This document shows, piece after piece, positions 1,820-32,000 of a stretch of 64,000 nt of DNA (the first letter of the stretch is position 1; the number at the start of each line of letters is the position of its first letter). The translations under genes were made by a program, and so were the position numbers. The DNA comes from Moniliella sp. 'wahieum' (taxonomy: Eukaryota), in NCBI GenBank assembly GCA_003971905.1, contig RSEE01000012.1:558001-622000 (forward strand), given 5' to 3'. The notes beneath the pieces are model-generated. The model saw only the letters and a program-made list of their open reading frames with translations. It was not told where the DNA came from and searched no databases.

Positions 1820-2278
1820 TTACTTGAGCACCTTCTTCTTGCGCAGCTGCGACGAGTGGCCGCACTTGCGCTTACGGCAGTTGGTCGCACGGGGAGGAAG
1901 GCGCGCGTAGCACTTGCGGCAAATCTGCTTCTCCACGTTCGTCTTCGACGCGAGGACCTTGAGCGATGGCTCAATGATACCACCCAGCAGGCTAGCGGAG
2001 AGAGGCGAGACCGGTTAGCCACACATCGTGAATCAAAAAACGGCAAGAAACTAGCGTGCGTACCTCAGCGACATGTGCAGGGTAGAGTCCTTCTGAATGC
2101 CGTAGTCGGCCAGGGTGCGGCCGTCAGCCAGCTGCTTGCCCGCGTAGAGCAAGCGCTGCTCCGCGGCAGGGATACCCTCGCGCGCAAAGTTGAGCGCCTT
2201 GACCGACTCGACAGTGGCCTCGGGGGCCACGGCGAGAGCCAGGGTGTTGCCCCGGACCGAGTTCACAAAGATTTGCAT
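1820..2278 (-). CDS. RPL40: Divergent ubiquitin-like domain fused to 60S ribosomal protein eL40
   Basis: Exon 1 (2278..2064) encodes [10 protein letters not shown]...[16 protein letters not shown]...GCTAAC...TAG intron spans 2063..1992. Exon 2 (1991..1820) gives (S)[56 protein letters not shown], which is the eL40 zinc ribbon. Confidence 0.92.
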
Positions 2279-2283
2279 CCCTC

Positions 2284-2395
2284 CTGTCGGCGGGGACGGG
2301 TTAGCGGGGGCTGGGCACGCAAGAGCAAAGGGGCTGGTGCTGTGCTAGAGCAGAGTGGGGCAGGGAGCGCACAGGGTGCGGTGGCGGGGACCTAC
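2284..2395 (-). other. Probable 5'-UTR intron of the UBL-eL40 gene
   Basis: Minus strand: AAG|GTAGGT donor at 2395, GCTAAC branch point near 2300, and CAG acceptor ending at 2284, 5 nt before the ATG. Confidence 0.6.
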
Positions 2396-3223: not shown

Positions 3224-4806
3224 ATGCGAGCGGCTGTGCGCGTCTCGACCGTGTCGCCAACGTTGGCCCTGCGCCGCGGCATCGCCTCCGCCGCGGTGGC
3301 GCGTGCGCCTGCTCCGGCACAGAACAAGTCGGACCAACCCCCCCCAGAACGCCCTGCCTGGGAGGTCAACAGTGCCGCCTATCTTGCCCGTCCGCTACCC
3401 TCGCTGCGGGAGTTGCGTGCCACCCTCTCACCGAGACGCCCTCCAAGGCGGTCCTCAGCAACCTCGAGCCTGCCTTCACTGCGGAGCCTGGTCCCTTTTT
3501 TGACGAGCACATGACGTTTGTCGGTGGTCGCCCGCGCCCTGGTATGACCACCTTCTACATGCGCGACCCGTACTTTGAGGGTGCCATGATCCGCACCAAC
3601 AACCTGCTGAGCGAGATGCAGCGTTGCCTTGAACTGCGTGGGATCTTGCGTGCGCGTGAGCTTCCGCCGCCGCCGGAAGAAAAGTACCGTCACAACACCC
3701 ATTGGGTCAATGTGGAGCTGGCCAGTGCTCGTCTGGCCGGTGCCAAGCCGGGGCATGAAGACAGCATTGGCAAGAACTATGTCACGTTGCGACGCTTCCA
3801 GTTTGTGGAACTACTGGATCGTCTCAAGGAGATTGCTCGCTACCTGCCCTACATTGCCCGGTGGTGTGCTTTCTGGCTTGCCGCCGCCTTTTGGGACGGA
3901 GCCGCACCCGTCGATTATTGGGCAAGAGGCCGCTTCGGACCGCGAGATTGCGTTGGCCAAGCAGTTGACTGAAGAGTTGGACAGGTTTGCTGCACCGACG
4001 ACAGCCATGGGCCAGGCGCGCAAGGCTCGGTTCAATATTGCGCTGAATGCTCCCTCGGACCCGGATGTGGAGGTGGTACGCAACCAGCCCAACCCGGGCG
4101 CCATCCTTCAGGCTCGCCGACCGGAGGACCGGTTTGCCAAGATGTGGACCATGGACGTCTCAGGCCGTATTCACAGCTCTGGCGCGCGTAAGCACGCCAA
4201 CGCGTCCGTGTGGATCGTGCCCTCGCGCACACGCGATGCACCCGGGCAAAATGGGCTGACGGTTGAGGCGCTGGAGCCGACGAGTGAGACGATGGCCGAA
4301 GCGGTTTTGAAGGCGCATGAGGGAGCAGCTGCTGAAGAAAAAGTCGACTCGTTCAATCCCTTGCCCCCAGAGCACATGCTCCGCACCGTGCCCCAAGGTG
4401 TGGGTTCAATTTTGGTCAATGGTGAACAGCTGGGTCGGTACTTTAGCAACTACAAGGACACGGCCTATGTGCAGCGTGCATTCAACGTCCTCGGTCTTGC
4501 TGGTGCCTTCAACGTGTATGCCCTTGTATCTGGTGGTGGCATGACGGGCCAGGCGGGTGCGATCGCCCATGGTCTGGCCAAGGCCTTGGTTGGCGCTGCT
4601 CAAGTCGGCTGGATCACCACCAAGTCCGCGCCCACTGGCATCACTCTCACCGCAGACCACAAGCCAAGGCCCAAGCCGAGTTGGCAGCTAAGATTCTCGC
4701 TGTTCTGCGTAAGGACGGTGTGTTGCGTCGCGACCCCCGCATGCCCGAGCGGAAGAAGACAGGCAAGCCTGGCGCACGCGCATCCCATACCTGGGTCAAG
4801 CGTTGA
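3224..4806 (+). CDS. MRPS9: Mitochondrial ribosomal protein uS9m
   Basis: Arg/Ala-rich presequence MRAAVRVSTV; S9 motifs SSGARKHANASVW, GSILVNG, VSGGGMTGQAGAIAHGLAKAL; C-terminus RRDPRMPERKKTGKPGARASHTWVKR*. Split over frames by indels. Confidence 0.88.
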
Positions 4807-5040
4807 GGACCACCACGTCCATACCGCAAAATCTATCCTCAAGTCTCCCCTGGCGTGTTATAGAGCAGTAGAAGCTGAGCGATCGAATCCATTGCCTGAA
4901 AGTTTACAGGTACTCGGGAGACACCTCTTGCTTTCCCTTATCTGGTTGTGGTTGCCGATTGTGGTACTCAACGAAGGACTTTTTCCAGGAAATGTAGTCG
5001 TGCTAATACTTATCGATCGTCTCATCCTCCTTTGACTTGT

Positions 5041-14712: not shown

Positions 14713-16143
14713 ATGAGCTCCTTCCGCTTCCTCGCGCTCGTGCGCCCCTTCATGGGCGTCCTCCCCGAGGTCGCCGCCCGAGCGCAAGGTGCCGTTCCAG
14801 AGCCGCGTGCTGTGGACCGCCATTGTGCTCGGTATCTTCCTCGTCTCGTCCCAGATCCCCTTGTATGGCATCATGTCCTCCGACAGCTCCGACCCGCTCT
14901 ATTGGATGCGCGTCATCCTCGCCTCCAACCGGGCACCCTGATGGAGCTCGGCATCAGCCCCATCGTCACCTCGGCATGATCATGCAACTCCTCGCGGGTG
15001 CCAACCTGATCGAGGTCGACTTTAGCCTCAAGGAGGACCGCGCTCTGTTTGGTGGCGCGCAGAAATTGTTTGCCATTCTCATCTCCTTGGGCCAGGCCAC
15101 AGTCTACGTCTTGTCCGGCCTGTACGGCCCGCCGTCGCAGCTGGGCGCCGGGGTGTGCTTGCTGCTCATTCTCCAGCTCGTCGTGGCCGGGCTGATTGTG
15201 ATTCTGCTGGACGAGCTGTTGGTCAAGGGCTATGGCTTGGGCTCGGGCATCAGCCTGTTTATTGCGACCAACATTTGCGAAAGCATTGTGTGGAAGGCGT
15301 TCAGCCCCACCACTGTCAACACGGGTCGTGGACCCGAGTTTGAGGGCGCTCTGGTGGCCTTGGTGCATCTGTTGTTTACGTGGAACGACAAGACGCGTGC
15401 GCTCAAGGAAGCCTTTTTCCGCGACCGGTTGCCCAACGTGATGAACTTGCTTGCCACGCTGGTTGTCTTTTTGGCCGTCATTTACCTCCAAGGCTTCCGC
15501 GTCGAGATTCCGATCAAGTCGGTTCGGTTCCGTGGCCAGCAGGGCCGGTACCCAATCAAGCTCTTCTACACTTCCAACATGCCCATCATGCTGCCAGCAC
15601 CTGACCAGCAACGTGTTTATCATTTCGCAAATGCTCGCTTCGCGCTTCCCTTCCAACTTGCTTGTGCGTCTGCTGGGCGTGTGGGAGCCCATGGAAGACT
15701 CGCCGCAGCTCCATGCTGTCGGTGGCTTGTCCTACTACCTCTCCCCCCCCACCTCCTTGACCGCGGCGGCCCAGGACCCGCTTCACACACTGGTCAACGT
15801 TGCCTTTACCCTGGTCGTGTGCGCTCTGATCTCCAAGGCGTGGATCGACGTGTCGGGATCCGGGCCGCGCGACGTGGCCAAGCAACTGAAGGACAATGGC
15901 ATGGTCATGGCCGGGCACCGGACGGGTCAATGTACAAGGAACTCAAACGGATCATCCCCACCGCCGCTGCCTGGGGCGGCGCAACGATCGGTGCGCTCTC
16001 GGTCGCGGCCGACTTGATTGGTGCGTGCTTGGCTCGGGCACCGGCATCTTGATGGCTGTCACCACGATTATACGTACTTTGAGATGGGCTTGCGCGAATC
16101 GGGCGGGCCAGAGATGAACGCGCTGGGCGACCTGATCGGCTAA
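14713..16143 (+). CDS. SEC61: Protein translocon subunit Sec61 alpha
   Basis: [104 protein letters not shown]. Frameshifted by indels. Confidence 0.97.
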
Positions 16144-29003: not shown

Positions 29004-32000
29004 TCAGCGCGAAGAAAGAGAAGCCAAATCGAAATTGTTACGCGCAGAAATGATCTTGGGAAGAGAAAGAGGTTTGGTGAACCAGTCAGGGAGATGGTGT
29101 GCACCTGGAGTGTAGTGGACTTTAATTTCGCCTCGGTGGATGCGTTCCCGCACCTCGTGGTACGAGACGTCAATCTCCCGTATTTTGCCTAGGCTGCCGA
29201 GCTTTTCGGCCAACGCTTTGGCAGCGGTGTTGTCAACAAAGAGCTCAATCGGGTGATTAGCCTTGCAGACACCAAGTTCAAACAGTATGTTGCGAATGAA
29301 TAGAGCATCTCGAAGGCCATCTCCCATGGCTAGGTATTCAGATGCTGCTGTGTTGCTCACACCTTGATTTTGGGACTTGGAGCCCCAGGATACAGGCACA
29401 CCGAAAACAAAAACAACATGGCCCGAAACGGAGTGAGAGTTGCTCTTGTCTGATGCAAAGGAGGCATCGGTGTGCAGCTCGAGTAGAGGGCGAGATCGGT
29501 TGGGTGTGAGGCACAAAGAGTAGTCAGACGTACCGGCGAAGAAACGTAATAGGTCCTCCGCTGCGCGTCGGTGGGCGGCGGACGGGTCGTCCATAAACCG
29601 CGCTAAAAAGGTAGCCGCAAAGAGGGCATCAGGCCGGGACATACGAGCCGCCCACAAGCTGGATCCGACAATAGAACGGTAGGCACGGTGCTCGTCTCGA
29701 GTGGCACGCTTTTCGTGTTCGGGTCGCTTGGGAGGCGGAAGTTGGTGGCCGATTGGAAGGTAGCGGGGCCGTGAGGTGAGGTGATATGTCATGCGCGGCA
29801 AGCGTCTCAGCGATGAATTTGGGTTGGCTGATGTACAGTCGTCCATCGATACGGTCGTATTGGCAGCCGAGATGGAAACGTAGGGGGCCGTTGGACTTAA
29901 TTTGGATGCTGCGCCTTAATTCCACTAAGAATTCATCATACGCTTCTTGGGACCGACACGCGACCAAAAAGTCGTCAGTGTGGACGGCGATTAGGATCAG
30001 GCCAAGAGGTTCGGTGCGACGACGTATGAACAGGCAAGGCTCTGATTTTAGGCTAGTGAAGTGGAGTCGGTCGCAAAGGAAAGTGCGGAGCCAATCTCCA
30101 AAGTTGGCCCCGCTCTGGTGCAGGCCATAGAGACTTTTCTTGAGTCTCCAGCAATGACCGGGCGCTTCTGGGAAGAAGGGGGGTGGTCGAACATAGACGA
30201 GCTCGTTGATATCGGCATAGAGGTAGGCAGCTTCCACATCGGCAGAAAATAAGTGGAGGCCATCAGCTTCGGCCAACGCAATTAGCGTGTTGACGGCAGC
30301 AGTACGAACGGCAGGAGCAAAAGATTTCGCCCATGTGCCAGGAACTTGCCGGTGCCCTCCCACAACGTAGCGGGCACGGTACTTGAGGAAGTTAGCATCC
30401 GCATCCGTCTTAGTACCTATGACCCACATGCCGGGAAGGGGTTTGATCCCTGGGGGGATGGGTACAACTTCCTTCACGTCACGCTCGTCAAAACGCCGAA
30501 GCTCGAGGCGCATTGCCTCGAGTACGCCATCAAAGGCAGGGTGACCCACCAACTTCTTGATGTTCTTGGGGGCCACCGGGACCCCATCGGTGGTCAGTAT
30601 GACCTCGGTGTCACTTGCCGCGGATTCGATTGCGAGTGCGATGGGGGGCGAGCTTGGCTCCGAAGCAGGTAGCATGGATGTGTCCGGCGCTGGTCCGAAA
30701 ATACTCACCAAAGCCTGCATTCCTAGGGCGGAGAGGGCGGCCGGGTTGCCAAAGATGCTAGGGGCCTTGTTGACGAGCAGGGAAAAGGTGCCATCGCGCA
30801 AATTGTCGTTGGCTGGAATGGACAGGTCGAGGGTGGAGCGTTGATACGCGCTTGGCGAACGGGATTGCGACGCACGAGTGGGGACGGCTGTATCGGTCAG
30901 GGGCACGGTCACGGGGGCGAGCGTGTCGGTGGGGAAGAGAGGGGAGGGGGATAGGGCGGGAGAGGAAGGGGAAGTGGAAGAGGGAGGGGAAAGCAGGACT
31001 TGGTGGCCAGTGTCAACGGCATCTTCTGTGATAGTTTCATTTTCTTCGGCTTGCTTTGCCTGGCGTTGTGCCATGCCTGCGGGGTCAGATGCAACAGGTT
31101 GGGGGGATACATGTGGGGGGTTGGAGTTGGTGGGAGTGGGGCCAGGCTCTGAATTCTCATTTTCGTTGGCTTGAGCCGGGCGATGTGCCTCATTAGTATC
31201 GCGGGTCAGTTCATCTATCGCAAAACGCACACGCCGGGGTGGGGAGCTGTCTGACTTCCCACCAGCACCCATTTCTCCGCCCCCCCGCACCTCTCCGCCA
31301 CCAGCAGGGACAAGGGGGTTCAGATGAAAGTGCGTGGGATATTCGGTGGTGTACGGGACATGTGTCCAGGTGGACGGCTTTTTCCAACGGAATCCAACTT
31401 GGCCGTCGTCCTGGTGGATGGCAAAGAGCCACCCTTCGAACCGCGGCCGTGCCCGTAACCCACCAACATTGCTGGGACGGCCCGCGGACCAAGTTTGCCG
31501 CCCTCGCGTTGGTTGGGCAATAGGTGCAGGTAGGCAAGAGTGCCAAAACCGCGCATGCGAAGGGAGGGTTTGAAGCCATGGTACCGGACAAATCGGCTGT
31601 CCCCACCCAGTGCTTTCGGCGGCGACTGGTTGTGTGCATATGTGGCCGCCAACAAGCTGTGTTCCCACCACTCGTCGGGAGTCAATCTGTTGGCGATTAC
31701 CATGAGTCGAGCGCGATCCGTAATCGATCTTATGGCGCGTTCGGCGACCCATTGGACGCACTTTCGCCAGGATTGGTGCGCTCGCTCACTACTCCCAGCT
31801 CGCAGTAAAACTCGTCCATTGCGGTGGTGAGTTCAGGCGCATTGTCAGAGCGGACCGTCTGAAGGGGGCGGTCGGGATGTTGGCGATGCTCGCGCCGGAT
31901 GAAGGCTTGAAGTTCGGCTGTGGCATCACCCTTGGACACCAGGGGTAGCGTCCAGGTATACCGCGTAAAGTCGTCGACAATGATAAGGGCGTAAGTATGA

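Follow-up and report, generated by a model that had tools for sequence, protein, structure and literature searches.

A strongly diverged, conserved ubiquitin leader on ribosomal protein eL40 in a small basidiomycete clade

In Moniliella sp. 'wahieum', ribosomal protein eL40 is encoded behind a ubiquitin-derived leader that matches canonical ubiquitin at just over half of its residues, and closely similar leaders occur in three other assemblies. We read this as a working eL40-precursor gene in which ubiquitin, in an ancestor shared by a small group of basidiomycetes, escaped near-invariance before a new sequence became stably conserved, the leader probably serving as a cleavable cis-chaperone that the ubiquitin E1 would not charge (probability about 0.6). 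The gene structure, the divergence, the conservation in relatives and the predicted fold underlie this reading; cleavage, a chaperone role, loss of E1 charging and supply of ubiquitin from other genes are what it would entail. Ubiquitin is the classic example of a protein that can hardly change, and the copy made from an eL40 fusion gene normally contributes to the ubiquitin supply of the cell.

The gene lies on the minus strand of the window, by which we mean the whole 64-kb stretch of DNA analysed, and has two exons (2278..2064 and 1991..1820) separated by a 72-nt intron (2063..1992). Joining the exons by coordinates gives a 128-aa product, a 76-residue ubiquitin-like leader connected through Gly-Gly to a 52-residue eL40, and reproduces the leader sequence of the preliminary description. 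Its features are:

2064..2278, minus strand: exon 1, from the ATG at 2278 to base 2 of codon 72 (71 complete leader codons and the AG of the next), with the 3' end CAC ATG TCG CTG AG.
1992..2063, minus strand: predicted intron of 72 nt, phase 2 within codon 72, with a GTACGC donor, a CTAAC branch site at 2018..2014 and a TAG acceptor.
1979..1991, minus strand: start of exon 2, comprising the third base of codon 72 (AG/C, Ser72), Leu73, Leu74, Gly75 and Gly76, with presumed cleavage after 1979.
1823..1978, minus strand: eL40 coding part, 52 codons beginning IIEPSLK, with all four cysteines of the CxxC...CxxxxC motif present and a match to Pfam Ribosomal_L40e.
1820..1822, minus strand: stop codon TAA, by reading of the sequence.
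2284..2395, minus strand: candidate 5'-UTR intron of 112 nt (GTAGGT...CTAAC...CAG), ending 5 nt before the ATG, a prediction only.

Introns in the 5'-UTR are common in ribosomal protein genes. Pfam assigned exon 1 to ubiquitin (PF00240, 76.9 bits, E 9.9e-22) and exon 2 to Ribosomal_L40e (PF01020, 99.5 bits, E 9.9e-29), scores that place both domain matches far beyond chance. The two domains, with the Gly-Gly junction in the spliced frame, bear out the initial claim of an eL40 fused to a degenerate ubiquitin.

The predicted intron has a pyrimidine-rich tract after CTAAC, the TAG/C boundary at 1992/1991 brings the frame back, and read-through would meet three in-frame stop codons. A different acceptor restoring canonical ubiquitin, named in the preliminary description as a possible explanation, was looked for in the locus sequence, and no alternative GT/AG pair that keeps both the frame and the GG-IIEPS junction was found nearby. 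We likewise rejected an alternative splice restoring LRLRGG, as there is no second in-frame GT...AG pair and codon 72 reads AG/C. The codon-72 intron site is common to 13 of the 120 related Ub-eL40 records listed, which read through an intron there, and sharing it with other basidiomycete Ub-eL40 genes marks this gene as the ancestral locus type, not a retrocopy. Where relatives read the intron through in frame, a Ser arises from AG plus C or T at the exon-2 boundary, which implies CG/C or CG/T (Arg) in their spliced codon 72; the R72S change may therefore be explained by one first-base change in that codon (CG/ in the relatives, AG/C here).

The same intron affects public annotation. Models that read it in frame (P0127, P0136, P0146, P0158, P0160, P0171, P0177, P0184, P0199, P0201, P0208, P0236 and P0238) have 13-21 spurious residues before LRGG, and further public Ub-eL40 models start within the intron, so that they seem to be without ubiquitin.

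Codon usage is the same across the fusion, with GC3 at 85% in the leader half and the eL40 half alike and 2% of codons A-ending; the eight neighbouring ORFs have GC3 of 59-76%. This bias weakly suggests a highly expressed gene, and its equality in the two halves indicates no relaxation in the leader half. The gene would be a working one for the eL40 precursor, its expression and splicing being predicted from sequence signals. Other parts of the window gave matches of different kinds: a 707-aa open frame at 29629-31752 (minus strand) matches a Ty1/copia-type reverse transcriptase (RVT_2, 128.8 bits) and represents a copy of a retrotransposon lying some 27 kb away from the eL40 gene, 3710-5035 (plus strand) has a Ribosomal_S9 match (63.2 bits), which we would guess to be a mitochondrial ribosomal protein, and 14865-16052 (plus strand) matches SecY/Sec61 alpha (154.6 bits).

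Against the canonical ubiquitin contained in P0125, which we take to be the same as yeast ubiquitin, the leader is identical at 42 of 76 positions (about 55%), with 34 substitutions and no indel. The substitutions are concentrated in residues 1-40 (24 of 34) and include K6N, K11N, K29L, K33R, L8V, I44L, V70S, R72S and R74L. Three of the seven lysines are present (K27, K48 and K63) and K6, K11, K29 and K33 are gone; the hydrophobic patch is V8/L44/S70 in place of the canonical L8/I44/V70, and the tail reads LSLLGG in place of LRLRGG. R42, G47, Q49, H68, L71, L73, G75 and G76 are retained, as are F4 and I36. The identity, the lysine losses and retentions, and the patch and tail changes first reported for this leader were all recovered in this comparison.

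The predicted structure is that of ubiquitin. An AlphaFold2 model of the leader, built from a nine-row alignment, has a pLDDT of 93.2 and the strand and helix order of ubiquitin, and its best Foldseek matches in the PDB are ubiquitin chains (TM 0.93, rmsd about 1.2 A, about 59% identical). In a PDB sequence search with the leader, all 60 matches listed are ubiquitin or ubiquitin-derived, two of them Affilin variants. As the 60 PDB sequence matches listed and the best Foldseek matches are of ubiquitin type, the leader domain is a derived ubiquitin. An assignment to NEDD8 was rejected, with none of the 60 PDB sequence matches listed being NEDD8.

The gene has the 76-residue beta-grasp domain, the eL40 directly after Gly-Gly and the codon-72 intron position of a Ub-eL40 precursor, and its ubiquitin part, at 42 of 76 against canonical ubiquitin, is far from the near-identity that such precursors normally have. 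The leader lacks several marks of a conjugatable ubiquitin, namely Arg72 (Ser72 here), the full set of seven lysines and the L8/I44/V70 patch. It also departs from FUBI, being fused to eL40 and not to eS30, 76 residues long and 55% identical to ubiquitin; the description 'FUBI-like', applied to it earlier, holds as an analogy only, for this is a derived ubiquitin on eL40 without the 2-residue deletion. What it does match is a divergent UbL40, that is, a diverged ubiquitin on eL40 with the fold retained (as defined in PMC10457151), the fold in this case being a predicted one.

Orthologues of exon 1 were found in three separate Logan assemblies. In a leader-only search scored against proteins of 53-170 residues, P0285, P0289 and P0292 were 90, 87 and 87% identical to the leader, and every other match among the 120 listed was at most 64% identical. 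A search with exon 1 that included longer proteins returned mostly polyubiquitins among the 120 matches listed (42-62% identity), with no orthologue among them, and a search of JGI metagenomes found no exon-1 orthologue, the 8 loci recovered all being canonical-like (identity 58% for matches spanning the full length and 72% for those limited to residues 33-71). Like the window gene, the three orthologous gene calls end in ...HMSLR and then run into non-coding sequence, which places their intron at the same position. The comparison covers exon 1 (residues 1-71), outside which lie residues 72-76, and the read-through Arg of the orthologues is compatible with either CG/N or AG/N at codon 72.

Across the window leader and the three orthologues, 54 of 71 exon-1 positions are invariant, K48 and K63 among them. 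At the 32 exon-1 positions where the window leader is derived, 30 are non-canonical in all four sequences and 21 have the identical residue in all four. A maximum-likelihood tree of 16 leaders places the four in one clade (support 90/92) on a stem of 0.5 changes per site, with tips of 0-0.094 and three canonical ubiquitins at 0-0.012. The long stem and short tips indicate that most of the change preceded the split of the four lineages and that the resulting sequence was retained afterwards, so that a burst gave way to constraint. The Ustilaginomycotina relatives Moesziomyces, Sporisorium, Pseudozyma, Parajaminaea and Malassezia have canonical ubiquitin in their Ub-eL40 genes, so the diverged leader belongs to a narrower clade.

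It is hardly credible that errors of assembly or sequencing, or the decay of a pseudogene, account for the gene. Its 34 substitutions come without a frameshift or stop, its splice signals are intact, the predicted fold is confident and the same pattern recurs in three independent assemblies; the derived residues shared with orthologues refute both artefact and decay, and the earlier remark that indel noise does not explain the divergence stands on the same grounds. As far as sequence can tell, the gene is real and maintained.

A second explanation is that this is a specialised or redundant paralogue, a copy that drifted after duplication with a canonical Ub-eL40 gene also present in the genome. 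The eL40 half offers it some support. Although this half is 46/52 identical to the eL40 of Ustilaginomycotina and Cryptococcus, it carries rare residues: among 118 relatives, V15 occurs in two, K47 in none and V50 in none. A search with the eL40 exon gave basidiomycete Ub-eL40 proteins as best matches, at up to 89% identity, and the eL40 half is mid-range among the matches listed, where 113 of the 114 scored have scores of 44-52 against P0130 and the remaining one 38. Against drift after duplication stand the intact copies with shared derived residues in three other assemblies, the strong codon bias in both halves, the retained ancestral intron and a search of the 64-kb window that found no second ubiquitin or eL40 gene. 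We consider a paralogue unlikely.

On the preferred reading, the ubiquitin of the eL40 fusion would have lost its near-invariance in the ancestor of a small basidiomycete clade, where a new sequence then became fixed, with the beta-grasp and the Gly-Gly directly before Ile1 of eL40 retained. Because both of these are kept, the leader would still act as a cis-chaperone, aiding the making and folding of eL40, and would still be cleaved off. In yeast, the ubiquitin of Ubi1 is reported to be needed in cis for productive eL40 expression, with SUMO (Smt3) a partial substitute (PMC6721733), from which it follows that the chaperone role needs a beta-grasp leader and not the exact ubiquitin sequence. 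For FUBI-eS30, removal of the leader is described as obligatory and cleavage as dependent on the di-glycine (PMC8354635).

Removal would fall to a deubiquitinase-type protease, possibly one adapted to the new tail. USP36 is described as holding ubiquitin at three patches (F4, I36 and I44) and in pockets for L71 and L73, with glutamates contacting R72 and R74 (PMC10611586). Among these contacts the leader has F4, I36, L71 and L73; position 44 is Leu, and R72 and R74 are gone. With F4, I36, L71, L73 and the Gly-Gly kept, and Leu at position 44 as in FUBI, the leader is probably still cleaved.

After release, the leader would not be charged by Uba1 and would stay outside the ubiquitin pool. The ubiquitin E1 strictly required Arg72 in a phage selection (PMC3731359), which upholds the earlier statement that R72 is a key residue for E1 specificity, and Ser72 predicts that charging by Uba1 does not occur. 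Ser72, Leu74, Ser70 and the possession of three of seven lysines together suggest that the leader does not join the ubiquitin pool, which would be supplied by other genes, polyubiquitin and Ub-eS31.

It could be argued instead that the leader, once cut off, goes on working as normal ubiquitin does, with Uba1 charging it and conjugation following. Laboratory scans report that single changes are tolerated over most of the ubiquitin surface (PMC4862753), and the changes here are mostly in the N-terminal half, with the 24 of 34 in residues 1-40 noted above. R72S, however, removes the residue strictly selected by the ubiquitin E1 (PMC3731359), V70S and four lost lysines are among the 34 changes, and the ubiquitin of the relatives Moesziomyces, Sporisorium, Parajaminaea and Malassezia is essentially unchanged, so strong selection on ubiquitin persists in the group. 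We regard ordinary function as improbable. One observation does run counter to the preferred reading: most of the positions sensitive in yeast ubiquitin scans (R42, I44, K48, G75, G76, L71, L73 and I36; PMC4862753) are retained in the leader, I44L being conservative, and with K48 and K63 also kept, some conjugation-type constraint may be acting.

A related proposal is that the leader has become a new ubiquitin-like modifier, activated after cleavage by an E1 other than Uba1, the NEDD8 E1 being a candidate, and then conjugated. It draws on the retained Gly-Gly terminus, K27, K48, K63, R42, H68, L71 and L73, and on the conservation of the leader since the burst. According to PMC3731359, the NEDD8 E1 rejects Arg at position 72 and accepts Ala, Leu, Ser and Gln, and it also tolerates varied residues at 71, 73 and 74 of ubiquitin variants with Ser72, so that at position 72 a Ser gets past the gate of the NEDD8 E1 and not past that of the ubiquitin E1. 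Requirements of folding and of recognition by the protease, on the other hand, account for the conservation equally well, and the link to the NEDD8 E1 is drawn from a single residue, position 72 of the window leader. Conjugates of such a modifier would also look unusual: with Arg74 missing, trypsin would leave a long remnant on targets instead of GG. The preliminary description had offered two readings, a non-conjugatable folding or assembly leader and a new ubiquitin-like protein. Conservation, predicted fold and the loss of Arg72 favour the former; the latter survives as a rather doubtful option.

Diverged eL40 leaders are not confined to this clade. Among the 120 eL40 matches listed, 82 had the full 76 residues upstream, and in 55 of these 82 canonical ubiquitin was matched at 70 or more of the 76 positions. 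The remaining 27 are mostly gene-model artefacts, in which for example an intron was translated or the start misplaced, and several are truly diverged; the list is enriched for oddities, since identical canonical proteins collapse into few clusters, and gives no estimate of frequency. The diverged leaders are:

P0233, Microsporum canis: 41/76 identical to canonical ubiquitin, tail LDLPGG.
P0173, Synchytrium microbalum: 46/76 identical to canonical ubiquitin.
P0188, Synchytrium endobioticum: 45/76 identical to canonical ubiquitin.
P0147, Pleurostoma richardsiae: 62% identical to canonical ubiquitin, 74 residues, tail FSLRGG.
P0176, Biscogniauxia marginata: 70% identical to canonical ubiquitin, 74 residues.
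P0124 and P0165, metagenome records: 72% and 57% identical to canonical ubiquitin, tail LRLLGG.

Two Sordariomycete leaders have a 2-residue deletion in common. The leaders of Microsporum, Synchytrium, Pleurostoma and Biscogniauxia sit in the same fusion as the window leader, are 54-70% identical to canonical ubiquitin and have tails that are sometimes altered. They are 47-57% identical to the window leader, no closer than canonical ubiquitin is, and occupy separate long branches in the tree, so the fungal divergences look independent. No description of diverged fungal eL40 leaders turned up in the literature searched, and the possibility that this divergence was already documented lineage-wide, raised with the first description of the gene, was in that literature not borne out for fungi. 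A survey of fusion architectures is described as having admitted ubiquitin domains only from 80% identity to yeast ubiquitin upwards (Martin-Villanueva et al. 2021, PMC8122580), a cut-off by which cases like this leader would be missed.

A bolder hypothesis would join these observations. In it, the eL40 leader of the basidiomycete clade is a ubiquitin-like protein of its own, the equivalent of FUBI in fungi, cut by a protease that does not need Arg72 or Arg74 and invisible to Uba1; with its GG end, K48 and K63 present and Ser72 perhaps opening it to charging by the E1 of NEDD8 or by some other E1, it would mark proteins, and eL40 leaders would have escaped several separate times in fungi. We hold this whole to be a long shot.

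A fungal clade in which 45% of the leader has been replaced and the residue required by E1 is gone amounts to a natural experiment, one that separates the duties of the leader towards eL40, to fold and be cut off, from the duties of ubiquitin as a modifier. With the other fungal cases, it suggests that such escapes are commoner than the literature states; repeated fungal escapes, if true, contradict the published view of extreme rarity. There is a practical side as well, in that both the gene and whatever the leader might modify would be misread by annotation pipelines and by di-Gly proteomics built on canonical ubiquitin.

Several known systems bear comparison with the gene. Yeast Ubi1/Ubi2 and human UBA52 have in common with it the 76-residue beta-grasp, the GG and a 52-residue eL40 starting IIEPSLK, and its intron position is as in other basidiomycetes; it differs from canonical Ub-eL40 in its 42/76 identity to canonical ubiquitin and its LSLLGG tail in place of LRLRGG. 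FUBI-eS30 (FAU, in holozoans) likewise has a degenerate GG leader on a ribosomal protein that must be cut off, and FUBI is reported to be poor in lysines and to carry Leu where ubiquitin has Ile44 (PMC8354635, PMC10611586). FUBI, however, is described as a 74-aa protein, 36% identical to ubiquitin, of an old separate family and on eS30 (PMC10611586, PMC8354635), whereas the window leader has 76 aa, is 55% identical to ubiquitin, derives recently from it and is carried on eL40. NEDD8/Rub1 also has a residue other than Arg at position 72, described as a gate keeping the modifier off the ubiquitin E1 (PMC3731359); the window leader differs in being fused to eL40, and its PDB sequence matches listed are of ubiquitin type in 60 of 60 cases, with no NEDD8.

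Parallels also exist in protists. The rule that the ubiquitin of Ub-eL40 is nearly invariant, assumed when the gene was first noticed, holds as a rule and has exceptions, in Giardia, in two Plasmodium lineages (PMC10457151) and in the further fungi listed here. Divergent UbL40-encoded ubiquitin was formerly reported from Giardia only, and Dalhuisen et al. (2023, PMC10457151) added the Vivax and Ovale lineages of Plasmodium, in which roughly 15% of sites or more differ and most lysines remain, and asked whether such escapes are more widespread. The UbL40 ubiquitins of Giardia lamblia and Plasmodium are likewise fused to eL40, have likewise escaped conservation and likewise keep the predicted fold (PMC10457151); the window leader, in contrast, has 45% of its sites changed, has lost four lysines and both tail arginines, and belongs to a fungal host. 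The escape of eL40-fusion ubiquitin from conservation has therefore already been published for protists and can be seen in fungal proteomes that are public, and the window leader is an unusually extreme case of it.
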